The position numbers and the translations under genes were made by a program. Positions 13,206 to 42,460 of a stretch of DNA of 64,000 nucleotides are shown in pieces. Position 1 is the first letter of the stretch; the number at the start of each line of letters is the position of its first letter. The notes under the pieces are model-generated. The model ran no database searches and was not told the origin of the DNA. It saw only the letters and a program-made list of their open reading frames with translations. This DNA is from a bacterium (GTDB lineage Bacteria; Electryoneota; AABM5-125-24; Hatepunaeales; Hatepunaeaceae): contig JALGVR010000001.1 in assembly GCA_025774605.1 (NCBI GenBank), forward strand, positions 2,634 through 66,633, given 5' to 3'.

Positions 13206-15320
13206 TTGGATCAATATCTTTTAATCACACTGATAGCTGGTGTACTGGCGTTGCTCTTCGCCCTTTTCAAGGCCGGACTGGTCAAACGTCAGGATGTTGG
13301 CGATGCCAGGATGGCGGAGATAGCGAAGAATATCCATGAGGGGGCGATGGCCTTTCTGGGTAAAGAATACTCGGTTCTCGTCATCTTCGTGATAGCAGTA
13401 GCGATCCTGCTGGCGATCGCCAACGCGGGCAACCCGGAATCACACGCGCTCGTCGCCCTGTCGTTCGTTCTCGGCGCGATCTGCAGCGGCCTGGCGGGTT
13501 TTTTCGGGATGACCGTCGCCACCAAAGCCAACGTCCGTACGACTCAGGCGGCGCGCACCGGATTATCCAAGGCGTTGTCCGTCGCGTTCTCCGGTGGAAC
13601 CGTAATGGGGATGTCGGTGGTCGGGCTGGCGGTATGCGGTCTGGTGATACTGTTTCTCGTTTATACCAGGCTGATGGGTTTTGACGCACATACGCACATC
13701 GGGCTTAAGAAGCTCCTGGCCACCATATCCGGTTTTTCTCTGGGCGCTTCATCAATCGCCCTGTTCGCCCGTGTCGGCGGCGGTATTTACACGAAAGCCG
13801 CTGACGTCGGCGCCGACCTGGTCGGGAAGGTGGAAGCCGGCATTCCGGAAGACGACCCGCGCAATCCCGCGGTTATCGCTGACAACGTCGGGGATAATGT
13901 CGGCGACGTCGCCGGTATGGGAGCCGATCTGTTCGAGTCATACGTCGGAGCGATCGTCGGTTCGATGGTCATCGGCGGCTCGAGCTGGTATGTGTTGTCT
14001 GCAGGTGCGGAGAAGGCGTTGATGCCGGTGATGCTGCCGCTTGTGCTGGCAGCGGCGGGGATCATCGTCTCCATAATCGGCACCTTCTTCGTTCGGTCGG
14101 GAGAGAAATCGAATCCACAGACCGCGCTGAACATCGGCACGTTCGGCGCCGGGATTTTGATGGTGATCGCTTCCTGGTTCATCATACATGCCTTTATCGA
14201 GAGGCCGGTGCGGGTCACCGATTTCTTCGGTGTTATGCACACCTATACGGCGACCGGCGTCTTTCTCGCCACGATCTACGGATTGCTCGCCGGAATTGCC
14301 ATCGGGCTGATCACCGAATATTTCACATCCGAAAGCCGCGGTCCTGCGCATGCTGTCGCCCGCGAGAGCCTGACCGGCGCGGCAACCAACATCATCGCGG
14401 GGTTGGCGACCGGCATGCGGTCCACAGCCCTTCCGCTGATAGTGCTCGGCGCCGCAATCATCCTGGCCTATCATTCAGCCGGTCTCTACGGGATCGCCAT
14501 CGCTGCAGTCGGAATGTTGTCTACAACCGGAATTCAGCTCGCCGTCGATGCCTATGGCCCGATTGCCGACAATGCCGGTGGGATAGCGGAGATGGCCGAG
14601 CTCGGCCCTGATATCCGCAGGCGAACGGATAAACTCGACGCGGTCGGAAACACAACTGCCGCGATCGGCAAGGGCTTCGCCATCGGGTCGGCCGCACTGA
14701 CCGCGCTGGCGCTGTTCTCGGCGTTCATGACTGTAGTGCAGATCAAGCATCCTGACGTCAGGATAGACGTTATGAATCCGAACGTGATGGCCGGTGTACT
14801 GGTCGGCGCCATGCTCCCGTTCCTGTTCAGTTCATTCGCCATGCGCGCTGTCGGGCGCGCGGCCGGGAAGATGATCGAAGAGGTGCGCCGCCAGTTCAAG
14901 GAAATACCCGGTTTGCTGGAGGGCAAGGAAGGCGTCAAGGCGGATCACAGCCGCTGTGTCACCATCGCCACCGCCGGCGCCATCAAGCAGATGGTTGCAC
15001 CGGGGTTGTTGGCTGTCCTGACACCGGTGGTGGTCGGCTTTGCATTCACCGACAAGTCGGTATTGGGTGGACTGCTTGTCGGCGTTACATCGTCCGGCGT
15101 GCTGATGGCGATCTTCATGTCAAACACCGGCGGCGTGTGGGACAACGCCAAAAAGCATATCGAAGGCGGAGCGTATGGCGGCAAGGGTTCCGATGCCCAT
15201 AAAGCCGCCGTGGTAGGCGACACGGTTGGCGATCCGTTCAAGGATACCGCAGGCCCATCGCTGAATATTCTCATCAAGTTAATGAGTGTCGTTTCGTTGG
15301 TTATTGCGCCCCTGTTGTGA
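13206..15320 (+). CDS. hppA: Membrane-bound proton/sodium-translocating pyrophosphatase (TTG start).
   Basis: 704 aa with about 16 [11 protein letters not shown] and [10 protein letters not shown] signature motifs of H+-PPase. Confidence 0.9.
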
Positions 15321-15423
15321 GGAGGAATTACTGCAGGACGGGATGATGAGAATGGGATTCCATCACCCTCTGCACATTTCCGGGTGGCGATTTGTTAAAG
15401 TCATTTCAAAAGCGAGGTGTTAA

Positions 15424-16656
15424 ATGGGTAAATTGATAAGACCCCACGGCTCCGACAATCTGATCACGCTCCTGTTGCAGGGTGAGGAACTGGCGGCAGA
15501 ACGGCGGAGAGCGGAAACGCTCCCCCAGGCGCGCATTACCTCCCGCGAGGTCGGTGATTTGATCATGATGGGCATCGGCGGATTCACGCCGCTGAAGGGA
15601 TTCATGGGTCACGACGATTGGAAGGGTGTCTGCGCGGAGATGAAGATGACCGACGGCACCTTCTGGCCGATACCGATCACCGTATCGGTCGACAAGGAAT
15701 TCGCTGATTCGATCAGGGAAGGCGACGAGATAACCCTCGTCAACGACGAAGACGGGGATCTCATGGCGACCATGAAAGTCGGCGATAAATATACGATCGA
15801 CAAATCATTCGAATGTAAACACGTTTTCACCACTGACGATCTTGAGCATCCCGGCGTCAAGATGGTGATGAGCCAGAAGGAGGTCAACCTCGGGGGTGAG
15901 GTCAAGGTTCTGTCGGAGAGCTATTTTCCAAAGGAGTTCGCCGGTATCTACCAGCGTCCGGCGGAAAGCCGCAGGATCTTCGAGGAGAAGGGCTGGCGGA
16001 CGATAGCCGCACTGCAGCTCCGCAACCCCATGCACCGTTCGCACGAATATCTGGCGAAGATCGCCATTGAAGTCTCGGACGGTCTGTACATTCACCAGTT
16101 GGTCGGCAAGCTGAAGCCGGGAGACATTCCGGCCGACGTTCGCGTGAAATGTATCAACACCCTGGTGGAGAATTATTTCAACAAGGAGCGGGTGGTCATG
16201 GGCGGCTATCCGCTCGACATGCGTTATGCCGGTCCGCGCGAAGCCTTGCTGCACGGCGTCTTCCGCCAGAACTTCGGCTGCACGCACATGATCATCGGAC
16301 GCGATCATGCCGGTGTCGGCGAATATTACGGCCCGTTCGACGCTCAGACCGCATACTACGACCTGTGGGAAGGCGCCCTGGAATGCAAGATGCTGCCGAT
16401 CGACTGGACGTTCTGGGACTACGGTCAGGGCGGCATGGCGTCGATGAAGACCTCACCGGATAAGAACAAGGACAAGCGGCTGTTCCTTTCGGGCACCAAG
16501 CTGCGCAAACTGCTCAGCGAAGGCAAGCTGGACGAGATTCCACCGGAGTTCAGTCGTCCGGAAGTCCTTACCATTCTCAAGGAGTACTACGCCGGGTTGA
16601 CCGAGAAGGTCGAGATCAAGATGCACGGCTACGCCACCGGTGAAGGAAAGAAATAG
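15424..16656 (+). CDS. sat: Sulfate adenylyltransferase (ATP sulfurylase), dissimilatory type.
   Basis: 410 aa. [12 protein letters not shown] and GRDHAGVG motifs. It lies 100 bp after hppA and just upstream of aprBA. Confidence 0.9.
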
Positions 16657-16710: not shown

Positions 16711-17151
16711 ATGCCAAGCTATGTAAATCCAGAAAAGTGCGATGGGTGCAAGGCGCTGGACAAGACCGCTTGCCAGTATATCTGCCCCAACGACTTGATG
16801 GTCCTGGACAAGGCGACCGAGAAGGCTTACAACCAGGATGTCGCCATGTGCTGGGAATGCTATAACTGCGTGAAGATATGCCCCGTGGATGCGATCGAAA
16901 TGCGCGGTTATGCTGACTTTGTGCCACTCGGTGCAACTGTCACACCGATGCGCGGTTCAGATGCCATTATGTGGACCGTGAAGTTTCGCAACGGGATGTT
17001 GAAACGGTTCAAGTTCCCGATCCGTACAACTCCTGAAGGTTCCGCGGTTCCTGACGGCGGTTGGGATACCGGGACGGATGATTTGGGCGATGCCACCCTG
17101 TTCACCGAACCGGGATCAATCGGGCTGCCTGAAGTTCCAACCCTGAAGTAG
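16711..17151 (+). CDS. aprB: Adenylylsulfate reductase beta subunit.
   Basis: The MPSYVNPEKCDGCKA N-terminus is characteristic of AprB. Two [4Fe-4S] Cys clusters. Confidence 0.9.
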   Translation: MPSYVNPEKCDGCKALDKTACQYICPNDLMVLDKATEKAYNQDVAMCWECYNCVKICPVDAIEMRGYADFVPLGATVTPMRGSDAIMWTVKFRNGMLKRFKFPIRTTPEGSAVPDGGWDTGTDDLGDATLFTEPGSIGLPEVPTLK

Positions 17152-17164
17152 AGGAGTCGTCACA

Positions 17165-19051
17165 ATGGCAAATTTTGAAACTGTTACAGTAAACACCGAT
17201 CTGCTGATTGTCGGCGGCGGCATGGCTGCCTGCGGCGCAGCGGTGGAAGCGGCGTACTGGGCCAAGAAGAACGGCCTGAACGCCGTTATCGTCGACAAGG
17301 CTGCCCTGGATCGTTCCGGCGCGGTGGCGATGGGGCTTTCGGCGATCAACCAGTACGTCGGTCTCAAAGATGGTGATAACACCCTGACCGACTATGTCAA
17401 TTACGTGCGCAACGACCTGATGGGTATCACACGTGAAGACCTGGTCGCCAGCATTGCCCGCCACGTCGACGGGACAGTTCACCTGTTCGAGAAATGGGGT
17501 CTCCCGATCTGGAAGGATGAGGACGGCAAGTACGTGCATGAAGGCCGCTGGCAGCTCATGATCAACGGCGAATCCTACAAGGTTGTCGTCGCCGAAGCAG
17601 CCAAGAATGCAATCGGGATCGACAACCTCTACGAGCGCGTGTTCATCGTCGGTCCGCTGATGGATGGCGACCGCGTTGCCGGCGCAGTCGGTTTCTCGGT
17701 TCGCGAGGAGAAGTTCTACGTGTTCAAGGCAAAGGCTGTCCTGGTTGCCATGGGCGGCGCCGTGCACGTCTTCAAGCCGCGTTCGGCCGGTGAAGGTCTC
17801 GGTCGCGCCTGGTATCCACCCTGGAACTCCGGCTCATCCGCCTACTTTACGCTGAAAGCCGGCGCCGAGATGACCTGCCAGGAGGTCCGGTTCATCCCGG
17901 TGCGCTTCAAGGACGCCTACGGCCCTGTCGGCGCCTGGTTCCTGCTGTTCAAATCCCGCGCCACCAATGGCTTCGGAGAAAACTACATGCAGACCAACGC
18001 CAGTGAGCTCGAGAAATGGGTTCCGTACGGCAAGGTTAAGCCTGTACCCGCCAACCTGCGCAACTGGCTCATGATGCTCGATGTGATGGACGGCAAGGGC
18101 CCCATCTACATGCGTACCGAGGAAGCCATCGCCAACATCGCCGAGCAGTACAAGGACGATCCGAAGGCTTACAAGAAGAAGATGAAGGAGCTCGAGTCCG
18201 AAGCCTGGGAAGATTTCCTTGACATGACCATCTCACAGGCTTTCCTCTGGGCGGCGACAAACGTTGCTCCCGAGGAGAGGTCTTCCGAGATCGCCGCCGC
18301 CGAGCCGTACTTCATCGGCTCACACTCCGGCGCTTCGGGAGCATGGGTCTCCGGACCTGAAGACCTTCAAACCGACGAGACCAGAGGTGAGTACTTCTGG
18401 GGATACGCTCACATGTCCACCGTCAAGGGCCTGTTCTGTGCCGGTGACGCATCAGGCGCATCATCTCACAAGTTCTCGTCAGGTTCTCACGCTGAGGGGC
18501 GCATCGCGGCAAAGGCGGCCGTCAAGTTCATCATTGACAACAACACAATGCCGAATGTCAGCGACGAGACGATCGAAGGGTTGAAGAAGGAGATACTTGC
18601 CCCGCTCGACCGCTTCGCCCAATTCAGCAAGAACACCACCGATCCGGACGTCAACCCGGATTACATCCGTCCCAAGATGTTCATGTTCAGACTGCAGAAG
18701 ATCATGGACGAGTACGCCGGTGGTGTGACTTCCCAGTTTATGACCTCCAAGGTCATGCTGGATAAGGGGCTTGAGCTGTTGGCTTTCCTCAAGGAAGACT
18801 CGGAAAAGCTGGCCGCCGAGAACCTTCATGAACTGATGCGCTGCTGGGAGAACATCCATCGCATGTGGCAGGCTGAAGCCCACGTCCGCACCATCCTCTT
18901 CCGCGAGGAGACCCGTTGGCCCGGTTACTACTTCCGTGCCGACTGTCCCGAGATGAAGGATGACTGGAAGGTCTTCGCCAACTGCCGGTGGGATCCCGCC
19001 AGCGGCGAATGGGAGATGAAGAAAAGACCGGTTTACCAGATATTTGACTAA
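17165..19051 (+). CDS. aprA: Adenylylsulfate reductase alpha subunit (FAD flavoprotein).
   Basis: 628 aa. DLLIVGGGMAACGAA FAD motif. VDKAALDRSGAVAMGLSAINQY is typical of AprA. Confidence 0.9.
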   Translation: MANFETVTVNTDLLIVGGGMAACGAAVEAAYWAKKNGLNAVIVDKAALDRSGAVAMGLSAINQYVGLKDGDNTLTDYVNYVRNDLMGITREDLVASIARHVDGTVHLFEKWGLPIWKDEDGKYVHEGRWQLMINGESYKVVVAEAAKNAIGIDNLYERVFIVGPLMDGDRVAGAVGFSVREEKFYVFKAKAVLVAMGGAVHVFKPRSAGEGLGRAWYPPWNSGSSAYFTLKAGAEMTCQEVRFIPVRFKDAYGPVGAWFLLFKSRATNGFGENYMQTNASELEKWVPYGKVKPVPANLRNWLMMLDVMDGKGPIYMRTEEAIANIAEQYKDDPKAYKKKMKELESEAWEDFLDMTISQAFLWAATNVAPEERSSEIAAAEPYFIGSHSGASGAWVSGPEDLQTDETRGEYFWGYAHMSTVKGLFCAGDASGASSHKFSSGSHAEGRIAAKAAVKFIIDNNTMPNVSDETIEGLKKEILAPLDRFAQFSKNTTDPDVNPDYIRPKMFMFRLQKIMDEYAGGVTSQFMTSKVMLDKGLELLAFLKEDSEKLAAENLHELMRCWENIHRMWQAEAHVRTILFREETRWPGYYFRADCPEMKDDWKVFANCRWDPASGEWEMKKRPVYQIFD

Positions 19052-19063: not shown

Positions 19064-19102
19064 ATTCGGAGGCTCCCCGAAGGGAGCCTCCGAATGTGAT
19101 TT
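19064..19102 (+). terminator. Strong hairpin downstream of aprA (13-bp perfect stem, GNRA-like loop cgaa). Probably a terminator or transcript-stabilising element.
   Basis: attcggaggctccc-cgaa-gggagcctccgaat. It has only a weak downstream T-tract. Confidence 0.5.
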
Positions 19103-19152: not shown

Positions 19153-19422
19153 ATGTTGAAGATAATCGAACCACCAGTATGTCTTCACTGTGGCGGGTTG
19201 ATGGACAAAATGGAGATGCCCGCCGAGGCGGGTTATCCGAGTTCATTCGTCTGGGTTTGTTTCAACGATGATTGCCCCTACTATGTTCGAGGATGGCAAT
19301 GGATGAAGGAGAAATATGAGGTTAAGTCATCATACCGGTATAAGATAAATCCTGTCACGGGCTTAGCCAGTCCTCTGCCTGTGTGGTCTGAAACCGCCAT
19401 GAAAGACCGCATCGTTAGCTGA
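19153..19422 (+). CDS. Small (89 aa) Cys4 zinc-ribbon-like protein of unknown function.
   Basis: CLHC...x22...CFNDDC arrangement. It sits between aprA and the qmo genes. Confidence 0.4.
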   Translation: MLKIIEPPVCLHCGGLMDKMEMPAEAGYPSSFVWVCFNDDCPYYVRGWQWMKEKYEVKSSYRYKINPVTGLASPLPVWSETAMKDRIVS

Positions 19423-19441
19423 AAGGAACATAAATCCGCAG

Positions 19442-20272
19442 ATGAAAGAGTTTGAAGATCTTAAGAAGAAAATACTGACTGAATATCCCCGTTTGAGCCC
19501 CAGGGATCGGTTCCGATTCGAGTGCGGTCCGGACCTCGAGTGCTTTAATGTTTGTTGTTCCGATGTGAATATCTTCCTGACGCCCTATGATGTGCTGATG
19601 ATGCGCAAAGCCCTGGATATGGACTCCACCCGCTTCCTCGCCGAATATACGATTGTTCCCTTCGACAAGAATCAGAAACTGCCCGTACCGCTGCTGAAGA
19701 TGCGCGATACCGAGCGGAAGGAATGCCGATTCGTGGATACCAGGAAGGGCTGCAAAATCTACGAGCACCGTCCCTGGCCCTGCCGCATATATCCGCTGGG
19801 CGCCGCGTCGCCCGGTGAGACCGAAGTTAACGCCGAGCCGTTTTATTTCCTGATCCAGGAGGGACACTGCAAGGGTCACGAACGCGCCAGGGAATGGACG
19901 GTGGATGAATGGCTCGAGGACCAGGGGATCAGCGAATATGCCGAGTTCGGTGAGCTGTTCAAGAAGGTCACGCTGCACCCGGCGTTCACGCGGGGAAGGG
20001 AGCTGGCGCCGCAACAGATCGATATGTACTGGACGGCGCTTTACGATCTCGATAAGTTCAGACGCTTCATCTTTGAAAGCAGTTTTCTCAAACGTTTCGA
20101 AATCACGGAGCCGAAACTCGACGAGCTGAAGGTCGACGATGTCTCGCTGCTTCGTTTCGGTTTCGATTGGATCAGGTTTGCCATGTTTGGAGAGAAACGG
20201 GTAAAAGTCAGACCGGACGCCGAGAAGTGGATAAAGGGCGAGGGGGTCAAACCGGGGGTTGCCAATGCCTGA
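19442..20272 (+). CDS. YkgJ/UPF0153-family Fe-S/Zn-binding protein (CxxCxxCC-type 'putative zinc- or iron-chelating domain').
   Basis: ECGPDLECFNVCC cluster. The downstream C..IY.HRPWPCRIYP signature is typical of YkgJ-like proteins. Its end overlaps the qmoC start by 14 bp. Confidence 0.55.
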   Translation: MKEFEDLKKKILTEYPRLSPRDRFRFECGPDLECFNVCCSDVNIFLTPYDVLMMRKALDMDSTRFLAEYTIVPFDKNQKLPVPLLKMRDTERKECRFVDTRKGCKIYEHRPWPCRIYPLGAASPGETEVNAEPFYFLIQEGHCKGHERAREWTVDEWLEDQGISEYAEFGELFKKVTLHPAFTRGRELAPQQIDMYWTALYDLDKFRRFIFESSFLKRFEITEPKLDELKVDDVSLLRFGFDWIRFAMFGEKRVKVRPDAEKWIKGEGVKPGVANA

Positions 20273-31205: not shown

Positions 31206-31218
31206 TCGGTTTATAAAT

Positions 31219-31260: not shown

Positions 31261-31303
31261 GATATATGCGTCATCTCTATTCCATTTGGTTGTAATACCG
31301 AGT

Positions 31304-34876: not shown

Positions 34877-35643
34877 TGGGTCTCGACAGAAGAAATTTCA
34901 TAAAGATCGCCGGCTTGTCAACCCTGGGACTGGCAGGGAAACCCGCCGTTGATGCCATTGCCCGCATCAGGCTGCCGGAGGAGGCCCCCCTGACGGCGAA
35001 ACGTTGGGCGATGGTCATCGATTTGAGGAAGTGCAGGGAAAATCCGGACTGCAACGAAGCCTGTATTCATGCCTGTCACAAGGTTCACAACGTCCCGGAT
35101 TTCAAGAACCCGAAGGATGAGATCAAGTGGATATGGGAGGAGCGGTTCGAGCACGCCTTCCATGACCAGTCACAGGAGTATGCTGACGAGAGCCACAGGG
35201 AGTTGCCGGCGCTGGTACTCTGCAATCACTGCGACGATCCGCCCTGCGTCAGGGTATGCCCGACCGAGGCGACCTGGAAGCGTGATGAGGACGGCGTTGT
35301 GATGATGGACTGGCACCGCTGCATCGGCTGTCGTTACTGTCTGGCGGCTTGTCCTTACGGCGCGCGCAGCTTCAACTGGCGCGATCCCAGACCCTTCATC
35401 GAGGAGATTGAACCCGATTTCCCCACCCGCATGAGGGGTGTGGTTGAGAAATGCACGTTCTGCGAAGAGCGTCTGGCGAGGGGTGAAATGCCCGCCTGCG
35501 TGGAAGCCTGCGACGCCGGGGCCTTGACGTTCGGCGACCTCGAAGATCCCGAATCCAGGGTCAGGGAACTGCTTCGGACACACTTCACCATCCGTCGCAA
35601 GCCCGGCCTGGGTACGCAACCGTCTGTTTACTACATAATATGA
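34876..35643 (+). CDS. dsrO: DsrO (periplasmic Fe-S ferredoxin-like subunit with Tat signal).
   Basis: Twin-arginine motif (RRNFIKIAGL). Four Cys clusters of HybA/DmsB-type. Its ATG overlaps the dsrJ stop. Confidence 0.85.
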   Translation: MGLDRRNFIKIAGLSTLGLAGKPAVDAIARIRLPEEAPLTAKRWAMVIDLRKCRENPDCNEACIHACHKVHNVPDFKNPKDEIKWIWEERFEHAFHDQSQEYADESHRELPALVLCNHCDDPPCVRVCPTEATWKRDEDGVVMMDWHRCIGCRYCLAACPYGARSFNWRDPRPFIEEIEPDFPTRMRGVVEKCTFCEERLARGEMPACVEACDAGALTFGDLEDPESRVRELLRTHFTIRRKPGLGTQPSVYYII

Positions 35644-35650: not shown

Positions 35651-36805
35651 ATGTTAGAGAAAGCGTTAAGCGGCAGCAGGGGATACTGGATATGGCTCGC
35701 CGTCCTGGTCGGCATTATCTTCATCGGCTTCCTCTTCTGGCTCAAGCAGTTCCACCAGGGGTTGATGATCACCGGGCTGAGCCGCGATGTCAGTTGGGGG
35801 TTCTACATCGCCCAGTTTACCTTTCTGGTCGGCGTGGCCGCTTCGGCCGTGATGGTTGTGCTTCCTTACTATCTTCACAATTACAGGGCATTCGGCAAGG
35901 TAGTCATACTGGGTGAGTTTCTGGCCATCCCGTCCGTGATCATGTGCATGACGTTCATCTTCGTTGACATGGGGCAGCCGTTCAGGATCCTCAATGTATT
36001 CATTCACCCGACGCCGCACTCGATGATGTTCTGGGATACGGTTGCTCTGGGTGGTTATCTGCTGCTTAACCTGTTGATAGGCTGGACGACGCTGGGCGCC
36101 GAACGCAAGTCGATCCCGCCGCCCAAATGGATAAAGCCATTCATCATTATTTCCATCCCCTGGGCGGTCAGCATCCACACGGTGACGGCTTTTCTGTACG
36201 CGGGGCTCGCCGCGCGTCCCTTCTGGATGACCGCTGTCCTGGCGCCGCGCTTCCTGGCATCGGCGTTCTCGTCCGGCCCCGCGCTGCTGATCCTCCTCAT
36301 TCTTCTGCTCAGAAAGCTGACGGATTTCGACGCCGGCAGGGAACCGGTGCAGAAGCTGGCGGTGATAGCCGCGTACGCCATGAGCGTAAACGTGTTCCTG
36401 ATCCTGATGGAGGTGTTTACCGCACTTTACAGCGGCATACCGGAGCATTCGATACATCTTAAGTATATGTTCGTCGGAATCGAGGGAAATATGGCATTGG
36501 TGCCGTGGATGTGGTTGTCGTCGATCCTGGCGGTTTTCACTCTTCTCCTGATCATTCCCCCGAAAACCAGGCGCAACGAAGCCGTACTTGCCGTTGCCTG
36601 CGTCACGCTGTTTCTCTCTATCTGGATCGACAAGGGCATGGGAATGATCGTCGCCGGATATGTCCCCAACCCGTTGGGCGAGGTTACCCAATATTTCCCG
36701 ACCGTGCCCGAGCTGCTCATCTCGCTGATGGTCTATGCTGTCGGGGCGCTTATCATTACGGTTCTGTACAAGGTTGCGTTGTCTGTCAGGGCGAGCGTTG
36801 CGTAG
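35651..36805 (+). CDS. dsrP: DsrP (NrfD/PsrC-family integral membrane quinone-interacting subunit).
   Basis: 384 aa, about 10 TM. NrfD-like. Completes the dsrMKJOP module. Confidence 0.85.
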   Translation: MLEKALSGSRGYWIWLAVLVGIIFIGFLFWLKQFHQGLMITGLSRDVSWGFYIAQFTFLVGVAASAVMVVLPYYLHNYRAFGKVVILGEFLAIPSVIMCMTFIFVDMGQPFRILNVFIHPTPHSMMFWDTVALGGYLLLNLLIGWTTLGAERKSIPPPKWIKPFIIISIPWAVSIHTVTAFLYAGLAARPFWMTAVLAPRFLASAFSSGPALLILLILLLRKLTDFDAGREPVQKLAVIAAYAMSVNVFLILMEVFTALYSGIPEHSIHLKYMFVGIEGNMALVPWMWLSSILAVFTLLLIIPPKTRRNEAVLAVACVTLFLSIWIDKGMGMIVAGYVPNPLGEVTQYFPTVPELLISLMVYAVGALIITVLYKVALSVRASVA

Positions 36806-36950: not shown

Positions 36951-38633
36951 GTGGAGGTGGTTGTCATAGGCGGATCCGCCGCCGGACTTAAGGCGGCCTG
37001 CCGTATCAGCAGACTGCAGCCGGACGCAGGGGTCAGAGTCCTCGTCAAGGACAGGCGCTTCGCGTATTCCAACTGTGGACTGCCCTATTACCTGTCCGGC
37101 GACATCGAGAGCTTTGACGCGCTCATCACCGCTCCCAACGGCACGATCAAGGATGAGAGATACTTTCGTGATGTGAAGAATGTCGAAGTTTTCACCGGGC
37201 GTGAGGTTGTCAAGATTGACCGCGACGCCAGGTTGATCCGCTGCCATGATTCCGAAAGGAATCGGGAGGAGACGTATCCATTCGACAGGCTGGTGCTCTC
37301 AACGGGATCAAGCCCGATTATACCGGCGATCCCGGGTGTGAATGCGCCTGGTGTGCTCACCTTCACCAAGGCCGATGACGCGATCGCGCTGAGAACTGAT
37401 CTTGAAGCCAATCGCATAAGCAGGATCACCATAATCGGGGCGGGATTCATCGGGCTTGAACTCTGCGAGGCGTTCAGGGCGATGTGGGGGGTTGACGTTG
37501 ACCTCGTTGAGCTGCAGAATCAGGTTCTCTCCGGCCTGGTCGATACGGAACTCTCCGAAATCATTGAGGACGAAATACGCAGCCATGGCGTTAATATCCG
37601 GCTTGGGTGCGGTTGTCATGAGATTGTCAGGGAAGGTGAGAGGTTCTGTATCTTCGATCATGCCGGCGAGATGTTCGAATCGGACCGGATAATCATTGCC
37701 GCCGGTGTTCGTCCGAATGTCGAGCTGGCGAGGGAGGCCGGCCTGGAGATCGGGGTGACGGGGGGAATTAAGGTCAACAGTCACCTGCGGACATCGGATC
37801 CTGATATTTATGCGGCGGGTGATTGCGTCGAACTGCCCGACGCGGTGGATGGACGGGCCGGGTCATGGACGCTCGGATCGCTGGCGTCGCGCATGGGACG
37901 CGTGGTCGGCGACAACATCTGCAACGGCGACTCCCGTTTCGGCCCGGTGGTCGGTACGACCGTGCTTAAGATATTCGACATCACCATCGGTTCGGCGGGG
38001 CTTACCAGAGCGGACTGTAAGGATCGGGGTTACGAGATAAATGAGTGCTGGGGAACCTTTCACGATCGCCTGCATTATTTTCCTGAAGCCGGACCCACCA
38101 GAGCCAAGATAATATATGATCCGACCGATGGCAGGATTCTCGGCTTCCAGGCGGTCTCGCACGGCAATATCGTGCACACCCTGAATATTGCGTCGCAGAT
38201 CATGCGCAACAGCGGGACGCTGGATGACCTGAACGATATAGAGCATGCATATTCTCCGCCGTTTGCACAGCAGTTCGAGACCCTTCACTACCTTGCATTT
38301 ATTGCGGAGAACAGCCGCGTCGCCGGTGTGAAGCTTGTATCGCCGGCCGAGTTCACCAGCCTGCCCGATGAGACGCTGATTCTCGACGTACGGACAAAGG
38401 CTGAGATCGAAGGACGGCCACTCAATGGTGGAACGCGGCGTGTAATCGAGATACCGGTCGAAGAGCTGAGGGCGCGTTTGAACGAAATACCCAGTGCCGG
38501 CAAGGTTGTAACTGTCTGTCAAATGGGGGGACGCGGCTGGGACGCGGCGCTGATGCTGAGACGCGCCGGATTCACGGACGTCGGGATTCTCGCCGGAGGG
38601 GCTCTATTTTTGCCAACCGGTACTGCAGCTTGA
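36951..38633 (+). CDS. CoA-disulfide reductase / NADH oxidase-family flavoprotein fused to a C-terminal rhodanese domain (NADH-dependent persulfide/polysulfide reductase-like). GTG start.
   Basis: Single redox Cys in the SNCGLPYY motif (Cdr/Nox family). FAD/NAD Rossmann folds. A C-terminal rhodanese with active Cys in VCQMGGRG. Confidence 0.7.
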   Translation: MEVVVIGGSAAGLKAACRISRLQPDAGVRVLVKDRRFAYSNCGLPYYLSGDIESFDALITAPNGTIKDERYFRDVKNVEVFTGREVVKIDRDARLIRCHDSERNREETYPFDRLVLSTGSSPIIPAIPGVNAPGVLTFTKADDAIALRTDLEANRISRITIIGAGFIGLELCEAFRAMWGVDVDLVELQNQVLSGLVDTELSEIIEDEIRSHGVNIRLGCGCHEIVREGERFCIFDHAGEMFESDRIIIAAGVRPNVELAREAGLEIGVTGGIKVNSHLRTSDPDIYAAGDCVELPDAVDGRAGSWTLGSLASRMGRVVGDNICNGDSRFGPVVGTTVLKIFDITIGSAGLTRADCKDRGYEINECWGTFHDRLHYFPEAGPTRAKIIYDPTDGRILGFQAVSHGNIVHTLNIASQIMRNSGTLDDLNDIEHAYSPPFAQQFETLHYLAFIAENSRVAGVKLVSPAEFTSLPDETLILDVRTKAEIEGRPLNGGTRRVIEIPVEELRARLNEIPSAGKVVTVCQMGGRGWDAALMLRRAGFTDVGILAGGALFLPTGTAA

Positions 38634-38664: not shown

Positions 38665-39843
38665 ATGCCCCTGACCTGCTGTGGCATTAACCATCGTACA
38701 GGCTCCCTCGCAGACAGGGAGCCTTTTCAGCTTCAACGCGGCGAACTGGCTCAGGCGACGCTTGACTTCAAACGGATCTCCGGCGTGGAGGAGCTGGTCG
38801 TCCTGGCGACATGCAACCGCGTCGAGTTCTACTGCCGCGGCGCCGAAAAGCCCGACCCGAGGAATTCAATCATCGAGTTCTTTCGGCGGCGCGGCGTCGG
38901 GCAGCCGGAGCGGCTGCGACAGCATTGGTTCTTCCGTCAGGGAACGAGTGTAGCGCGGCATCTGTTCAAGGTGGCGTCAGGGCTCGACTCGCCGCTGCTT
39001 GGCGAGTATCAGGTTCTCGGTCAGGTCAGGGACGCTTACAGCCTTGGTTGTTCAGTCAGCGGTCCGGGCAAGTTTCTGCACAAGCTCTTTCACCATGCCT
39101 TCCAGATCGCCAAGCGGGTTCATTCAGAAACCGGGATAGGCGCAGGAGTTCAGGGTTTGGCGGGCGCTTCCCTGGAGCTGGTCAGGAAGCGGTTCGATGG
39201 TGAGCTTGCCGGCAGGCGGGCTCTGATCGTCGGCGTCAACAGCTCCACGGAGATGCTGTTGTCGCGGCTCGTGCGAGAGGGAGTTGATGTCACCGTCGCC
39301 AACAGGACCGTGTACAGCGCCGAGAAGATTGTCCGACCGTTCAACTCGACGGCAATCGCTCTTGATGATATGGATGAAGCGCTCAATACGGTTGACATGC
39401 TGTTCAGCGCCACATCCACCCCCGATTTCATGGTCGAGCCGGAGAGACTTTTACAGCGGGATCCCGGGCGTATGCTGGTCGCGGTGGACCTGGCGATTCC
39501 ACGCGACATAGACCCGCGTGTCGGGGATAACGAGCGTGTATTTCTGCTTGACCTCGACGACCTGAAGCATTACCTTGATTCCGTGCGGGAGGAGCGTGCG
39601 ACTGATCTGCCCTACGCGTTGGAACTGATCGAGGAGCAGGTCAAGGCTTACGAATTCTGGCGACGCAACACCGTTAAGGGTGGAAACAGCGCGCTGAGAC
39701 AGATACTGGAGCAGGACCGCCGGGACATCCTGTCCAAGTTCAGGGAAGGCTTCCGCCGCGGTGACCTGAAGGCGCTCGACGCGCTCACCAAGAACCTCTA
39801 CCGGCAATTCCTCCGCAGGATGAACAACTCCAGCGCTGATTGA
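38665..39843 (+). CDS. hemA: Glutamyl-tRNA reductase.
   Basis: LATCNRVEFY active-site Cys region, GEYQVLGQVRDAY, and an NADPH-binding domain. Confidence 0.85.
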   Translation: MPLTCCGINHRTGSLADREPFQLQRGELAQATLDFKRISGVEELVVLATCNRVEFYCRGAEKPDPRNSIIEFFRRRGVGQPERLRQHWFFRQGTSVARHLFKVASGLDSPLLGEYQVLGQVRDAYSLGCSVSGPGKFLHKLFHHAFQIAKRVHSETGIGAGVQGLAGASLELVRKRFDGELAGRRALIVGVNSSTEMLLSRLVREGVDVTVANRTVYSAEKIVRPFNSTAIALDDMDEALNTVDMLFSATSTPDFMVEPERLLQRDPGRMLVAVDLAIPRDIDPRVGDNERVFLLDLDDLKHYLDSVREERATDLPYALELIEEQVKAYEFWRRNTVKGGNSALRQILEQDRRDILSKFREGFRRGDLKALDALTKNLYRQFLRRMNNSSAD

Positions 39844-40092
39844 GATCCGTCCGATGCCCTGTGTGTCCGGAGGTGGTTTTTCAGCGTTTTATTTATGGGG
39901 CGGCACTCGGGGTGATTATATCGAACGGGGCGCTTGACATCGCATTTCGCACTTACCAAGGGATTGCAGTTAACGGTGAACTTTGACGATCCCCCGCATT
40001 CTCCCTTACGTCAATGGGGGGGGGGTGTACAAATGCAGAGAACAATCTGCCCCCATTAATATTTCGGGGGCAACTTATGGTTCCATTTCCAC

Positions 40093-40226
40093 ATGTCATT
40101 CTGAACTAAGTCATAACATTCTGAACGAAATCATAACATTCTGAATTAATCGTGTCATTCTGAACGAAGTGAAGAATCTCATTTCCTTCCATCGGGAAGA
40201 TCCTTCGCTGCGTTCAGGGCGACAAT
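40093..40226. repeat. Family-A repeat cluster: about 19-bp tandem units (cattctgaac-Naa-Ntcataa x3), then an inverted pair gtcattctgaacgaagtgaagaatctc ... ccttcgctgcgttcagggcgac with an internal palindromic loop.
   Basis: Seen directly. Homologous to 5985-6118. Confidence 0.7.
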
Positions 40227-40274
40227 ACAGTCAACCGCCCCCATTATTAACAATATAACTTATAGAAGCGAGTC

Positions 40275-40916
40275 ATGTACCTTCCTCTCTTTTTTAATGC
40301 CGACCTGACGAACTGCCTGGTTATCGGCGGAGGTGATGTGGCTCTCCGCAAGATAGAAGTATTGCTGAAAGCCGGCTGTAATCTCCTGGTCATCTCACCG
40401 CGGACTGTCGCCGGGATATCGGAACTCATCAGGGACGGGAAGGTCGCCCATCTGCGCCGGAAATACGAATATGGCGACTGTATGGGTAATCAGTTGATAA
40501 TTTCGGCAACAAGCGACAGTGAAGTAAATACGCAGGTTTCTGAGGAGGCGCGCGCCCTGGGCATACCGGTAAACGTTGTGGACGAACCTGATCTCTGCAG
40601 CGTGATTTTCCCGGCGATCGAACGGGATGAACCGCTGACGATCGCGGTCAGCACCGGTGGCAGGGCTCCGTTCATGGCTGCTGAACTGCGTGACAGGCTG
40701 AGGGGGACGGTTAAGGGGTGGGGCAGATGGGTCGAGATCGCCGGGGAGTTCAGGGAGTCGGTCAGAAAAGCCGTTACGGAACCGGCTGAGCGCGGCGGAT
40801 TGTACCGCAGGTTCGTTGCCGCGGGGATGCCTCCCGATGAGGTAGCGCCCCCCGAAGATCCCGACCTTGACAGGTGGATGGACTGGCTGCAAAGACTTGA
40901 GGACATGAACAGATGA
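40275..40916 (+). CDS. sirC: Precorrin-2 dehydrogenase / sirohydrochlorin ferrochelatase (CysG N-terminal domain type; SirC/Met8-like).
   Basis: NAD-binding LVIGGGDVALRKIEVLLKAGC plus the CysG_N dimerisation region. 213 aa. Confidence 0.75.
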   Translation: MYLPLFFNADLTNCLVIGGGDVALRKIEVLLKAGCNLLVISPRTVAGISELIRDGKVAHLRRKYEYGDCMGNQLIISATSDSEVNTQVSEEARALGIPVNVVDEPDLCSVIFPAIERDEPLTIAVSTGGRAPFMAAELRDRLRGTVKGWGRWVEIAGEFRESVRKAVTEPAERGGLYRRFVAAGMPPDEVAPPEDPDLDRWMDWLQRLEDMNR

Positions 40917-42460
40917 GCCGTGACACCTCGGAAACTGGAACCATTTACCTGGTGGGCGCAGGCCCGGGACATCCCGGCTTGATAACCAGGCTCGGTCACC
41001 AACTGTTGCAGGATTGCGACGCGGTGGTTTACGACGACCTGGCTCCGTATGAGCTGGTCGCCGAGCTGCCGCCGAATATCGTCAGGTATTACGTGGGTAA
41101 ACGCGCCGGCAGGCATTCCCAGCCGCAGAAGGAGACCAACAGCCTGCTGATCAGCCTGGCGGAAAAGGGGCTGAACGTGGTCAGGTTGAAGGGCGGCGAT
41201 CCGTTCATCTTCGGCAGGGGCGGTGAGGAGGTAACCAGGCTCAAGGAGGCGGGGGTGCCCTTCCGGATCGTTCCCGGCGTGACGGCGGTCACAGCTGTCG
41301 CTGCGGGCGCCGGCATTCCGCTGACCGACCGGCGGGATGCAGCATGGCTGCTGATGGCGACAGGTCATGAAGCTGCTTCTGCGTCGCTGCCGGTACCGTG
41401 GGAGGAGATCGCCGCACTCAGGGGGGGGACAGTGGTGATTTACATGGGTGTCGGCGCATTGCCGGAGATTGTGAAACGGTTGATATCGGGTGGAGCGGCG
41501 CCGGATACTCATGCGGCGGTGGTCGTCAGCGGTTATACGGGCGCTCAGCGGATTGTTACTGCGGAGCTCGCCGATCTGCCGCGATCCTGCGCGGAGCAGG
41601 ATGTGCAACCGCCGGCGCTGGTGATACTTGGTGACGTGGTGAAGCGGATGGATGGGGTGGGCTGGATGCAGCCGGGTGTGCTGGCCGGCAGGAGGATACT
41701 GATTACTCGACCATACGAGGCTTCCGCCGAAATCTGCGGCATACTGCGCAAGTATGGCGCCGAGCCGCTGCCGTTGCCGACCATTGAAATCCGACCGTTT
41801 GAGGATGTTCCGGGCTGGGACGGCTTTGAACGGTCGTCGGGGCGTCACGGCTGGATTGTTTTCACCAGCCGCGCCGGCGTCCAACATTTCCTGGATGGTT
41901 TATCACGGCGCGGTCATGATCTGCGCTCCCTGCATGATCTTGAGATTGCCGCGGTCGGACCGGGAACCGCTGGTGCTTTGTGGGAGAGGGGACTGAAAGC
42001 CGGTTTGGTCCCGACTGTCGCCACGGTGGAGCGGTTGGCCGAGGAGTTAACCGCGGAAAAGAACCTGCGTGGAGCGGTTGTCGTAAGGGTTCGCGGCGAT
42101 CTAAGCGATGATACGATCGAGAAAGCCGTCGCTTCGAAGGGGGCAGGGATTGTCCGGTTGACGGTCTATCGCACCATGACCCCCGAATGGGAGCCGCACT
42201 GGGTGGAGAACGTCAAGGAATATCCCCCGGATTACATCACTTTCACGAGTGGCTCGACGGTTGACGGGTTCGTCAAAATCCTCGGTCGGGGAGAGGCGTT
42301 GTCGGTGGCTGCGCGGTCGAAGGTCGTATCAATCGGTCCCGTGACGACAAAGGTGATCGAGGATTATGGTATGGAAGTCGCGGCGGAAGCCGCATTGCAC
42401 ACTCAGGAAGGGGTGGTGAAGGCGATTCTTCTTCTGGGGAGGCCGGTCACTCCTGTCTGA
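40913..42460 (+). CDS. cobA/hemD: Bifunctional uroporphyrinogen-III C-methyltransferase / uroporphyrinogen-III synthase (CobA-HemD fusion).
   Basis: The N-terminal SUMT shows VYLVGAGPGHPGLITR and GGDPFIFGRGGEE. The C-terminal roughly 250 aa are HemD-like. 4-bp overlap with sirC. Confidence 0.85.
   Translation: MSRDTSETGTIYLVGAGPGHPGLITRLGHQLLQDCDAVVYDDLAPYELVAELPPNIVRYYVGKRAGRHSQPQKETNSLLISLAEKGLNVVRLKGGDPFIFGRGGEEVTRLKEAGVPFRIVPGVTAVTAVAAGAGIPLTDRRDAAWLLMATGHEAASASLPVPWEEIAALRGGTVVIYMGVGALPEIVKRLISGGAAPDTHAAVVVSGYTGAQRIVTAELADLPRSCAEQDVQPPALVILGDVVKRMDGVGWMQPGVLAGRRILITRPYEASAEICGILRKYGAEPLPLPTIEIRPFEDVPGWDGFERSSGRHGWIVFTSRAGVQHFLDGLSRRGHDLRSLHDLEIAAVGPGTAGALWERGLKAGLVPTVATVERLAEELTAEKNLRGAVVVRVRGDLSDDTIEKAVASKGAGIVRLTVYRTMTPEWEPHWVENVKEYPPDYITFTSGSTVDGFVKILGRGEALSVAARSKVVSIGPVTTKVIEDYGMEVAAEAALHTQEGVVKAILLLGRPVTPV

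Follow-up and report, generated by a model that had tools for sequence, protein, structure and literature searches.

Gene content of the block

A block of 25 genes was found at 13206-42460 of the window (the whole 64,000-nucleotide stretch of DNA analysed). Over ~29 kb it carries a complete sulfate-respiration set, contiguous and co-directional on the forward strand. Genes were called from NCBIfam matches against curated cut-offs, with Pfam added. A membrane pyrophosphatase (PPase) gene is followed by sat, aprBA, two conserved uncharacterised genes, qmoC-A-B, dsrAB, dsrD and dsrN, then by dsrL, dsrC, dsrT, dsrMKJOP, a CoA-disulfide-reductase/rhodanese gene, hemA, sirC and cobA/hemD. A first-pass annotation had described contiguous, co-directional pathway genes at these coordinates, compacted with siroheme supply into a single block, and the family searches bore this out. 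The genes for sulfate activation, APS reduction and electron transfer are:

13206-15320, + strand: HppA, membrane-integral ion-translocating pyrophosphatase (NF001960, 951 bits, cut-off 546; TIGR01104, 903 bits)
15424-16656, + strand: Sat, sulfate adenylyltransferase (NF003166, 475 bits, cut-off 387)
16711-17151, + strand: AprB, APS reductase (TIGR02060, 199 bits, cut-off 136)
17165-19051, + strand: AprA, APS reductase (TIGR02061, 937 bits, cut-off 642)
19153-19422, + strand: 89-aa Cys-rich conserved ORF, function unassigned (synteny with relatives)
19442-20272, + strand: 276-aa CxxCxxCC (YkgJ-like) putative metal or Fe-S protein (PF03692, E = 1e-9)
20259-21434, + strand: qmoC (NF038018, 391 bits, cut-off 300)
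21486-22730, + strand: qmoA, HdrA-like
22734-25001, + strand: qmoB, HdrA-like, with a C-terminal MvhD (VhuD)/FlpD domain

HppA removes the PPi produced by Sat, and the linkage of the two genes recurs in related loci L007, L067, L068 and L069. The enzyme had been labelled an H+-PPase; it is a membrane PPase, but the ion may be H+ or Na+, the NCBIfam name being sodium-translocating. The 89-aa ORF matched no family in Pfam or NCBIfam searches, and its homologues (47-69% identity) occupy the equivalent position in FCB and Acidobacteriota loci. The 276-aa gene overlaps the start of qmoC by 14 nt and is syntenic in related loci. These two genes, which separate aprA from qmoC, were missing from the earlier gene list. 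The QmoABC complex listed there is present, but in the order qmoC-qmoA-qmoB, which is common to L003-L007, L037 and L051.

The genes for sulfite reduction follow:

25047-26273, + strand: DsrA, dissimilatory sulfite reductase (TIGR02064, 559 bits, cut-off 393)
26353-27435, + strand: DsrB, dissimilatory sulfite reductase (TIGR02066, 513 bits, cut-off 342)
27455-27721, + strand: divergent DsrD, 88 aa, winged-helix activator of DsrAB (hhalign)
27722-29107, + strand: dsrN/cobB-type amidase (TIGR00379, 428 bits)
29165-30862, + strand: DsrL type 2, NADP(H)-type NAD(P)-binding Fe-S flavoprotein (NF009410, 590 bits, cut-off 516)
30891-31205, + strand: DsrC (TIGR03342, 118 bits)
31259-31831, + strand: DsrT, RsbRD_N domain protein (PF14361, E = 5e-18)
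31877-32869, + strand: DsrM (NCBIfam equivalog, 549 bits, above cut-off)
32872-34488, + strand: DsrK (NCBIfam equivalog, 732 bits, above cut-off)
34436-34876, + strand: DsrJ (NCBIfam equivalog, 168 bits, above cut-off), tri-haem, with three CxxCH motifs
34807-35643, + strand: DsrO (NCBIfam equivalog, 320 bits, above cut-off)
35651-36805, + strand: DsrP (NCBIfam equivalog, 472 bits, above cut-off)

The earlier DsrD call was right in identity, though recognisable through profile-profile comparison only. The 88-aa sequence alone had no Pfam DsrD match and no PDB match; when its family (A1) was compared with Pfam-positive DsrD sequences (A2), hhalign gave 98.3% (E = 1.5e-14). The gene lies directly 3' of dsrB in every related locus compared. 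A single-sequence structure model shows three helices (pLDDT 66), and its fold matches, which were non-significant, are winged-helix domains. The place of dsrN within the dsr cluster is conserved among related loci. DsrL was typed by the YRR criterion of PMC7596348 (residues 297-299) and has a two-cluster ferredoxin domain at its C-terminus. DsrC ends in ...GACKVAGLAKPTGCV, with both C-terminal cysteines present. That dsrT adjoins dsrM matches the published description (PMC10504309).

The block ends with a flavoprotein and the genes for siroheme supply:

36951-38633, + strand: CoA-disulfide-reductase-family flavoprotein with C-terminal rhodanese (CoADR-Rhd), Npsr/CoA-persulfide-reductase-like (NCBIfam, Pfam, PDB)
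38665-39843, + strand: HemA, glutamyl-tRNA reductase (TIGR01035, 266 bits, cut-off 210)
40275-40916, + strand: SirC, CysG N-terminal domain (TIGR01470, 161 bits)
40913-42460, + strand: CobA/HemD fusion (TIGR01469, 260 bits; uroporphyrinogen-III synthase at residues 259-506)

The persulfide-reductase-like flavoprotein previously placed here, with hemA, sirC and cobA/hemD behind it, was thus recovered. CoADR-Rhd matches PDB entries 6pfz (E = 9e-110), Shewanella Npsr 3nta (E = 8.5e-94) and the CoA-persulfide reductase 8a56. Its redox cysteine lies within SNCGLPY and its rhodanese cysteine within VCQMGGRG.

Hairpins, promoter and repeats

The following non-coding elements were found in and around the block:

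12393-12427, + strand: intrinsic-terminator-like hairpin with T-run, 3' of the T9SS cargo gene (GAAAAGCCCCGGTTTTCAGCCGGGGCTTTTTTCTC, -24 kcal/mol)
13009-13037, + strand: sigma-70-like match, TTGACA-17-TATATT (11/12; pattern match in an AT-rich 834-nt spacer)
19064-19095, + strand: GC-rich hairpin directly 3' of aprA, 14-bp stem (intergenic fold z = -4.5)
31218-31261, + strand: 19-bp hairpin in the dsrC-dsrT gap (-31.6 kcal/mol)
40004-40227, unstranded: copy of a short dispersed repeat with core GTCATTCTGAACGAAGTGAAGAATC, part of the 431-nt hemA-sirC spacer

The T9SS sorting domain noted earlier outside the block was confirmed in a 1232-aa protein (8673-12371). The hairpin at 12393-12427 marks where the upstream transcription unit stops, and the match at 13009-13037 is a candidate promoter of the block. 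Promoter and co-transcription alike are read from pattern matches. In the same 834-nt spacer before the PPase gene, orf145 had no family match and is not called at this position in L067 or L068.

The hairpin after aprA had been described as the only strong break in the block; a second, equally strong one lies between dsrC and dsrT. A hairpin follows aprA in 14 of 14 related loci (12 distinct contigs), at -27 to -42 kcal/mol and with unrelated sequences, and in the window it probably either stops part of the transcription or stabilises the 3' end of the message. The 3' arm of the dsrC-dsrT hairpin spans the dsrT ATG (31259). A homologue is found in L001, and most related loci have hairpins 3' of dsrC.

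Host lineage and origin of the block

Proteins of the block are close to those of Ca. Hatepunaea meridiana (DsrA 86%, Sat 88%, AprA 88%, PPase 76%), and the flanks have the same nearest named taxon (TerC 70%, PFOR 81%). Judged by these identities, the host is a not yet cultured member of the FCB group whose closest named relative is Ca. Hatepunaea meridiana (Ca. Electryoneota), in keeping with the earlier remark that the lineage is not classically regarded as sulfate-reducing. The same block order is seen in L005, L006, L007, L037/L068 and L051/L069, while Ca. Hatepunaea shows it piecewise (L002, L067). The upstream junction is also kept: L067 reads MGMT-TerC-PPase-sat, and L068 has rSAM-MGMT-TerC-T9SS-PPase-sat, the window's own order. 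Towards the other end, dsrP-CoADR/Rhd-hemA-sirC runs on in L063 and L064, with the contig ending at hemA in L065 and at CoADR-Rhd in L066. The same block occupies the same chromosomal place in related uncultured Ca. Electryoneota/Calditrichota-like bacteria, which had been described before as likely sulfate reducers, and is thus an ordinary inherited feature of the lineage. We consider it very probable that this is the chromosomal dissimilatory sulfate/sulfite cluster of an FCB-group bacterium near Ca. Hatepunaea meridiana, inherited within that lineage.

The downstream edge is different in kind. Outside the pathway lies a spacer of lower GC (~0.52):

42504-43787, - strand: toxin-antitoxin genes (PhD-like, HicA, HicB-like, ParE, PhD; HicA E = 4e-18, ParE E = 4e-11)

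A DHOD-like gene by this junction contains two compensating frameshifts. The junction (42.5-43.8 kb) was in no other assembly compared, and in three relatives (L059-L061) the PFOR-RecR neighbourhood does not adjoin a dsr block.

The first-pass annotation had read the block as a laterally transferable island. Recent gain of a mobilisable segment of 29-32 kb, able to move again, would fit the toxin-antitoxin genes with their GC dip, the missing synteny of the PFOR side to L059-L061, an identical 27-nt palindrome on either side (12729-12755 and 44990-45016) and the presence of a dsr operon in just 12 of 28 Electryoneota MAGs (PMC10439189). Composition also gave it a point, as the split at the block borders had the largest tetranucleotide distance among 64 circular splits; a small compositional shift therefore exists, which codon bias of highly expressed genes could equally explain. 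Overall, however, block and rest of the window correlate at r = 0.964, with GC ~0.57 against ~0.55. The upstream junction persists in two relatives though PPase identity is only 76-78%, and cluster and flank genes overlap in identity range. No integrase, transposase or relaxase was annotated among the ORFs of the window, which also contains no tRNA and no Rfam element. The palindrome is REP-like: variants were located at 44934-44964 and 57610-57682, all copies sitting immediately 3' of a gene. The GTCATTCTGAACGAAGTGAAGAATC-core repeat, another host family, occurs both inside the block (40.1-40.2 kb) and outside it (inverted, at 6004-6146), as well as in the dsrA-dsrB spacer of L001 and the dsrP-CoADR spacer of L063. 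With the arrangement shared by close relatives and markers congruent, recent acquisition is highly improbable and has largely been refuted already.

The unmatched downstream junction and the frameshifted gene beside it could also suggest a chimeric assembly joining a dsr block and flanks from different organisms. We regard this as scarcely credible: L067 and L068 reproduce the upstream junction, L062 reproduces the PFOR-DHOD adjacency, composition is uniform and one repeat family is common to both sides of the border. Moreover, an independently assembled, fragmented MAG (HHE46...) shares 90%-identity clusters with the window for cluster proteins (DsrB, AprA, CoADR, CobA) and flank proteins (RecR, which is identical, and a PFOR fragment) alike.

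An older exchange is a different matter. An ancestor of the FCB sub-lineage may have received, or given, the whole apr-qmo-dsr cluster, for example from or to Acidobacteriota, with vertical descent since. Acidobacteriota loci L021, L027, L030 and L032 follow almost the same order, down to the pair of uncharacterised genes that separates aprA from qmo; the order dsrABD(N)LCTMKJOP also appears in NC10-, Methylomirabilota- and Chloroflexi-labelled MAGs; presence within Electryoneota is patchy (PMC10439189); and the history of dsr includes lateral transfer (PMC10504309). Against this, phyla differ in order (qmoCAB versus qmoABC, position of dsrN), and in a neighbour-joining DsrAB tree the window grouped with Hatepunaea, then with Calditrichota-labelled MAGs, then with other FCB lineages. 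The FCB-labelled sequences (Electryoneota, Calditrichota, Zixibacteria, Ignavibacteriales, GN15, LCP-89, Kryptoniota) stood apart from Acidobacteriota, mirroring the organisms, in what is a weak test, being neighbour-joining with taxa taken from MAG labels. The tree also speaks against the island reading. Ancient transfer between phyla is a possibility of some substance, albeit on the unlikely side.

Direction of the pathway

Sequence alone cannot tell in which direction the pathway runs, and the DsrAB tree contained no oxidative-type reference; we infer the reductive one. From established knowledge of the protein families, Sat would convert sulfate to APS, and the membrane PPase would hydrolyse PPi, conserving some of the energy in an ion gradient. 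AprBA would reduce APS to sulfite with electrons from the quinone pool through QmoCAB. DsrAB, activated by DsrD, would then reduce sulfite onto DsrC, using siroheme that HemA, SirC and CobA/HemD provide and DsrN amidates, and DsrMKJOP would reduce the resulting DsrC trisulfide, releasing sulfide. DsrL-2 may pass NADPH electrons to DsrAB, and CoADR-Rhd probably handles persulfide or polysulfide sulfur. The hairpins after aprA and dsrC probably divide the long transcription unit into segments that differ in mRNA abundance.

The cluster could instead work mainly in reverse or in disproportionation, oxidising sulfide, sulfur or thiosulfate as far as sulfate by way of DsrMKJOP, DsrC, DsrAB-DsrL, AprBA-Qmo and Sat while the PPase provides PPi. 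DsrL-2 is known from reducers and disproportionators and also from some oxidisers (PMC7596348), an enzyme that handles persulfide lies within the block, Desulfurivibrio alkaliphilus is documented to run a reductive-type pathway backwards (discussed in PMC6018796), and the gene set of Ca. Hatepunaea includes SoeABC as well as a high-affinity oxidase (PMC9324843). We nevertheless think this rather unlikely. DsrD, encoded directly after dsrB, activates DsrAB of the reductive kind and serves as a marker for that mode (PMC8794893, PMC10591310); Diao et al. count DsrL-2 beside reductive DsrAB and DsrD as a reductive indicator (PMC10591310); and family searches of the window returned no dsrEFH, sox, sqr or aprM.

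Comparison with known systems

The best solved relatives of the window's DsrA are those of A. fulgidus and Desulfovibrio. Sulfate-reduction potential and dsr operon structure in Electryoneota were already published in 2022-2023: a full DSR suite in Ca. Hatepunaea (PMC9324843), dsr operon structures, NSR-type gene included, in 12 Electryoneota MAGs (PMC10439189), and a complete Dsr set along with dsrD and dsrL-2 in Electryoneota/AABM5-125-24 (PMC10591310). Acidobacteriota are already known to have comparable consolidated clusters. The conserved uncharacterised genes and the hairpins are the remaining points of interest in the block.

Gene content and order of the block

The block (window 13206-42460) was found by six-frame ORF listing and family scans to hold 25 genes in an unbroken run, all on the + strand.

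Genes of the block, in order
Block 5' end, + strand: membrane pyrophosphatase (PPase), sat, aprB, aprA
19153-20272, + strand: 89-aa Cys-rich ORF and 276-aa CxxCxxCC (PF03692) protein, between aprA and the qmo genes
Following, + strand: qmoC, qmoA, qmoB
Following, + strand: dsrA, dsrB, an 88-aa gene (27455-27721), dsrN, dsrL-like flavoprotein, dsrC, dsrT, dsrM, dsrK, dsrJ, dsrO, dsrP
Block 3' end, + strand: CoA-disulfide-reductase flavoprotein with C-terminal rhodanese (CoADR-Rhd, 36951-38633), hemA, sirC, cobA/hemD fusion

Curated NCBIfam cut-offs were exceeded by Sat, AprB, AprA, QmoC, DsrA, DsrB, the DsrC family and DsrM/K/J/O/P, and the gene list and coordinates of the first-pass annotation are therefore correct. 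It had, however, passed over the two genes between aprA and qmoC. The Qmo module that it named is present in the order C-A-B, not ABC; QmoA and QmoB were assigned through their HdrA-like architecture, an MvhD/FlpD domain and synteny. DsrC ends in ...GACKVAGLAKPTGCV and keeps both conserved cysteines, 11 residues apart, the second being the penultimate residue. Three haem motifs were found in DsrJ. DsrL (565 aa) has Fe-S motifs at its N- and C-terminal ends and a YRR motif at residues 297-299; this motif in the NAD(P)-binding domain is the defining mark of DsrL-2 (PMC7596348), and places the predicted protein in type 2.

The gene directly downstream of dsrB needed a more sensitive comparison. 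A direct Pfam scan gave no DsrD match for the 88-aa product, and PDB sequence searches with the protein and with its family profile gave no DsrD identification. In a fold search with a single-sequence AlphaFold model (pLDDT 66.5) only non-significant winged-helix matches were returned, DsrD (1ucr) being at rank 8 with E = 1. We then aligned the family of this gene (22 positional homologues) with the genes that follow dsrB in the fetched Pfam-positive loci, five out of six of which match PF08679 (best E = 1e-30). The two families aligned by hhalign with a probability of 98.3% (E = 1.5e-14, 76 columns), which settles the identity of the predicted protein as a divergent DsrD. The earlier assignment of dsrD thus stands for a protein that neither Pfam nor PDB searches recognise.

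Predicted pathway and its direction

A working scheme was drawn from established knowledge of the protein families. Sat would form APS and PPi, and the ion-pumping PPase would pull this reaction forward and conserve energy. AprBA would reduce APS with electrons from Qmo, DsrAB would reduce sulfite onto DsrC with DsrD as allosteric activator (PMC8794893), and the DsrC trisulfide would be reduced by DsrMKJOP. Siroheme would be amidated by DsrN, its branch being fed by HemA, SirC and CobA/HemD. DsrL-2 could couple NADPH to DsrAB (PMC7596348), and CoADR-Rhd probably acts on sulfur in persulfide or polysulfide form, as PMC10439189 suggests for the NSR gene of the Tariuqbacter operon.

The reductive direction appears more likely, because dsrD follows dsrB and DsrL-2 is encoded beside reductive DsrAB/DsrD, a combination treated as a reductive indicator in PMC10591310. 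In a DsrAB NJ tree built without an oxidative reference sequence, the window was placed among MAG lineages called reductive-type in the literature. Operation towards oxidation or disproportionation (PMC7596348, PMC6018796) would be possible with such a gene set; within the 64-kb window, dsrEFH and other sulfur-oxidation markers were absent.

Conserved accessory genes and hairpins

The 89-aa Cys-rich ORF had no match in the family scans. Both it and the CxxCxxCC gene keep their position between aprA and qmo in related loci L004-L007, L021, L027, L030, L032, L037, L051, L055 and L067-L069, which span the FCB group and Acidobacteriota; in L041 the two genes lie at another place. The CxxCxxCC gene and qmoC share 14 nt, an overlap that suggests their translational coupling. 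The 89-aa ORF and the CxxCxxCC gene are probably the syntenic genes without assigned function that Hausmann et al. 2018 show. Our literature search found no paper tying CxxCxxCC proteins to aprBA.

CoADR-Rhd lies directly after dsrP, a position kept in four further metagenome contigs (L063-L066) at 56-71% identity. Its Pfam domains are Pyr_redox_2, Pyr_redox_dim and Rhodanese, and it matched PDB entries 6pfz, 3nta and 8a56 over its full length (E = 9e-110 to 1e-76). Both catalytic cysteines are kept, the redox Cys in SNCGLPY and the rhodanese Cys in VCQMGGRG. The CoADR fold with C-terminal rhodanese is shared with the Npsr/CoA-persulfide reductase family (Shewanella loihica Npsr, 3nta/3ntd; A. 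fulgidus NoxA-3, 6pfz; CoAPR, 8a56), whereas the window's gene is embedded directly 3' of dsrP and its substrate is putative. Distant CoADR-family homologues (31-36% identity) adjoin dsrAB in loci L035, L036 and L043-L045, labelled Syntrophobacterales, Thermodesulfobacteriota, Bacteroidales and Syntrophomonas, with L035 labelled only 'uncultured bacterium'. There are hints here of a wider association of the CoADR family with dsr genes.

The run dsrP, CoADR-Rhd, hemA, sirC recurs in L063 and L064; L065 extends to hemA and L066 to CoADR-Rhd, where each contig ends. The block thus includes the cofactor genes as a stable component.

A single strong hairpin break, after aprA, had been described. 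This hairpin was found at 19064-19095 (intergenic fold z = -4.5), and a second of equal strength between dsrC and dsrT at 31218-31261 (19 bp, -31.6 kcal/mol), where the 3' arm covers the dsrT start codon. Each of the 14 related loci examined, which represent 12 contigs (L037/L068 and L051/L069 are each one contig) and include Acidobacteriota and Thermodesulfobacteriota, has a hairpin of comparable strength and unrelated sequence 3' of aprA, and most loci have one 3' of dsrC; the energies in related loci are values without a shuffled control and are inflated in GC-rich genomes. Hairpins at both positions would be consistent with partial termination or 3'-end stabilisation, through which the sat-aprBA and dsrAB...C segments would become more abundant. 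Upstream, a terminator-like hairpin closes the T9SS gene (12393-12427), and a near-consensus sigma-70-like promoter match lies at 13009-13037, within an AT-rich intergenic spacer; the transcription pattern of the block, promoter and terminators alike, is only inferred from such features. We regard the intervening orf145 (12470-12907) as spurious, since it lacks both a family assignment and conservation in L067/L068, and the 27-nt palindrome described below lies within it.

The two aprA-qmo genes, CoADR-Rhd after dsrP and the conserved hairpins are the best residual leads. It is conceivable, though we consider it rather unlikely, that the 89-aa, CxxCxxCC and CoADR-rhodanese proteins are unrecognised working parts of Apr-Qmo/Dsr and that the aprA and dsrC hairpins are a general device for setting subunit stoichiometry in a long operon.

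Chromosomal position and composition of the block

The first-pass annotation had proposed a laterally transferable sulfate-reduction island. This proposal is not supported: the upstream junction recurs in L067 and L068, composition differs little, mobility genes are absent from the window, and block and flanks have the same nearest named taxon. The order sat-aprBA-orf-CxxC-qmoCAB-dsrABDNLCTMKJO was found in L005, L006, L007, L037/L068 and L051/L069, and in pieces in L001-L004.

Gene order at the upstream junction
Window: radical-SAM, MGMT, TerC, one T9SS cargo gene, PPase, sat...
Ca. Hatepunaea (L067, contig JAVCDD010000215): MGMT, DUF362, TerC, PPase, sat, aprBA, orf, CxxC, qmoC
274-kb contig (L068, PPase 78%): radical-SAM, MGMT, TerC, two T9SS cargo genes, PPase, sat...

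The chromosomal position of the block is therefore shared by genomes whose divergence has reached ~76-78% PPase identity; a relative with the block absent from this site was not seen in the synteny check, in which both L067 (Hatepunaea) and L068 kept the junction.

When the block was compared with the rest of the window, an island-like difference was not found: the tetranucleotide correlation was 0.964, and GC was ~0.57 in the block and 0.55 outside it, without a step at either border. The split at the block borders gave the largest tetranucleotide distance among 64 circular splits, but the shift is small and compatible with the codon bias of highly expressed genes. Whole-window tRNA and Rfam scans found nothing, and no integrase, transposase or relaxase was present among the annotated window ORFs. 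The only elements at or near the borders were toxin-antitoxin genes and REP-like palindromes.

Block and flanks also have a common affiliation. DsrA came closest to MAGs carrying the labels Calditrichaeota and Ca. Hatepunaea meridiana (86%), with Zixibacteria and Ignavibacteriales as the next relatives; Ca. Hatepunaea is a member of Ca. Electryoneota, within the FCB group. The nearest named taxon was identical for DsrA, AprA, Sat, PPase, TerC and PFOR, the last of which lies outside the block. Block genes are 66-88% identical to Hatepunaea (Sat 88, AprA 88, DsrA 86, PPase 76, QmoB 75, DsrN 66) and flank genes 52-81% (PFOR 81, TerC 70, MGMT 52); the ranges overlap, which is what joint divergence of block and backbone would predict. 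In a separately assembled, fragmented MAG (HHE46... proteins), DsrB, AprA, CoADR and CobA, together with the flank gene RecR (identical) and a PFOR fragment, fell into the window's 90%-identity clusters.

In the DsrAB NJ tree the window grouped with L001, L003 and Hatepunaea, next to Calditrichota-labelled MAGs. Zixibacteria, Ignavibacteriales, GN15, LCP-89 and Kryptoniota followed, and only then Methylomirabilota, Chloroflexi and Acidobacteriota. Within the FCB group, this order broadly matches how the organisms are related. Incongruence was not found, given the same nearest taxon and the FCB grouping, in a phylogeny check limited by a window without ribosomal markers.

One locus from a MAG labelled Hyphomicrobiales (L055) carries an FCB-type sat-aprBA-orf-CxxC-qmoC-dsrABDNLC block and groups with Kryptoniota and Ignavibacteria in the same tree; either the contig was mis-binned or the block was truly transferred between phyla.

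Repeats and the downstream junction

A type II toxin-antitoxin cluster (42504-43787) follows the block directly, and GC dips to ~0.52 there.

Toxin-antitoxin genes downstream of the block
42504-42701, - strand: PhD-like
42716-42970, - strand: HicA
42930-43154, - strand: HicB-like
43271-43522, - strand: ParE
43512-43787, - strand: PhD

The two PhD-like genes are paralogous (124-nt direct repeat, 73%). A DUF433/DUF5615 pair was seen upstream of the block in L069. Next to PFOR lies a DHOD-like gene (43810-44802, - strand), whose full-length alignment to the homologue in L062 needs two compensating frameshifts within about its first 47 codons; it is therefore either a pseudogene or locally mis-assembled.

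Two families of short repeats were identified.

Short repeats
REP-like palindromes (GGGGAGCGCCGACTTCAGTCGGCGTCC and variants): 12729-12755, 44934-44964, 44990-45016, 57610-57640, 57653-57682
Dispersed repeat (core GTCATTCTGAACGAAGTGAAGAATC): 6004-6146 and 40067-40227; in L001, 1-25 and 1407-1488; in L063, 1671-1700 and 1857-1888

The copies at 12729-12755 and 44990-45016 are identical at 27/27 positions and bracket the block, the toxin-antitoxin genes and the DHOD-like gene. Together with the HicAB, ParE/PhD and extra PhD-like genes, the GC dip at the downstream edge, and a RecR-PFOR neighbourhood that in three relatives does not adjoin a dsr block, this identical pair on either side makes a weak case that the block is mobile or was moved laterally. 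Palindromes of this family nevertheless lie elsewhere in the window too, in every case immediately downstream of a gene (T9SS cargo gene, PFOR, sigma-54 regulator), which fits REP-like elements, and the PFOR-DHOD adjacency is common to the window and L062. We rejected the inverted 27-nt copies as transposon ends, as the sequence is itself palindromic and has such variant copies; none of the 70 fetched loci contained its core motif. That the 32-kb segment between the identical copies once moved as a unit is a weaker alternative to the accessory-gene and hairpin reading.

The GTCATTCTGAACGAAGTGAAGAATC repeat occurs both inside the block, in the hemA-sirC spacer, where it explains much of an unusually long 431-nt gap, and outside it, upstream of the radical-SAM gene. 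In relatives L001 and L063 it lies in different dsr-cluster spacers. Evidently, repeats native to the lineage have spread into the block.

A rearrangement at the downstream junction (42.5-43.8 kb) is possible, because this junction, known from the window's assembly alone, was seen in no other assembly (relatives' loci extend ±10 kb and the metagenome contigs end at sirC).

Farther out, at 56109-62745, flagellar genes (rod proteins, fliE, fliF, fliG, fliH) come after the gene for a sigma-54-dependent response regulator, and the genome therefore combines a flagellum with T9SS cargo proteins. A polyamine biosynthesis operon lies at 927-4233 (- strand): agmatinase-family protein, spermidine synthase, pyruvoyl arginine decarboxylase, SAM decarboxylase and an HTH-cupin regulator.

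Comparison with known systems

That the pathway occurs in a lineage not classically regarded as sulfate-reducing is correct, though already published in three papers (PMC9324843, PMC10439189, PMC10591310). Ca. Electryoneota (AABM5-125-24) were reported there as potential sulfate reducers, Ca. Hatepunaea with a full DSR suite (PMC9324843); the dsr operon was found in 12 of 28 Electryoneota MAGs and its structure figured (PMC10439189); and a census of 950 genomes placed AABM5-125-24 among the phyla with a full Dsr set, dsrD and dsrL-2 (PMC10591310). The gene set of Ca. Electryoneota, with Ca. Hatepunaea meridiana and Ca. Tariuqbacter arcticus as examples, shares sat, aprBA, qmo, dsrABCD, dsrL-2 and dsrMKJOP with the window according to these sources. 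The Tariuqbacter dsr operon, as described in PMC10439189, also includes an NAD(P)H sulfur/persulfide oxidoreductase gene, as in the window. In Tariuqbacter and two other MAGs, however, cytochrome b6f genes are described as replacing dsrJOP, whereas the window has full dsrMKJOP. The Hatepunaea contig shares the MGMT-TerC-PPase-sat-aprBA-orf-CxxC-qmoC junction, while the window has a T9SS cargo gene inserted between TerC and PPase. In the Hatepunaea MAG the set is spread over several short contigs; in the window it lies on one uninterrupted contig.

Similar consolidated clusters are described for peatland Acidobacteriota (SbA2 and relatives; PMC6018796), with one MAG holding the full pathway, including dsrD, dsrL, dsrN, dsrT and dsrMKJOP, on one scaffold, and with syntenic conserved genes without assigned function inside the clusters. 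DsrABDNCTMKJOP is also described as one consecutive cluster in several bacterial lineages (PMC10504309). Four Acidobacteriota loci (L021, L027, L030, L032) have the order aprBA-orf89-CxxC-qmo-dsrABD-L-C-T-MKJOP. They belong to another phylum, with DsrA only 64-68% identical, qmo in the order ABC instead of CAB and dsrN at another place. These loci span ±10 kb and end before the positions of the PPase, CoADR-rhodanese and siroheme genes; Hausmann's MAGs do encode hppA (PMC6018796). A consolidated block may have passed between phyla long ago, a reading favoured by this almost identical order, including the two aprA-qmo genes.

In the portions of the literature available, the qmoCAB permutation common to the sub-lineage, the linkage of PPase and hemA-sirC-cobA/hemD to the block, and the conserved hairpin positions were not found stated. 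The window offers one uninterrupted view of the whole Electryoneota-like sulfate-respiration set, including PPase, persulfide-type reductase and siroheme supply, which published MAGs of the lineage contain in fragments only. Its main value is as an annotation reference for the qmoCAB order, the DsrD missed by Pfam, the DsrL-2 YRR motif, the two conserved aprA-qmo genes and the two conserved hairpin positions. The picture of who reduces sulfate, and of how the trait spreads, is unchanged.

In the canonical Desulfovibrio type, dsrABD, dsrMKJOP, dsrC, sat and aprBA-qmoABC lie at separate loci. The enzymes and inferred chemistry are the same, and among solved structures the window's DsrA is best matched by the enzymes from A. 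fulgidus and Desulfovibrio, but the modules dispersed there form one block in the window. To our knowledge, classical Desulfovibrio-type genomes lack dsrL; the window has dsrL, and its DsrD is too divergent for the Pfam model. With the published Electryoneota and Acidobacteriota clusters, the window is thus a further, unusually complete example of an already known cluster type.
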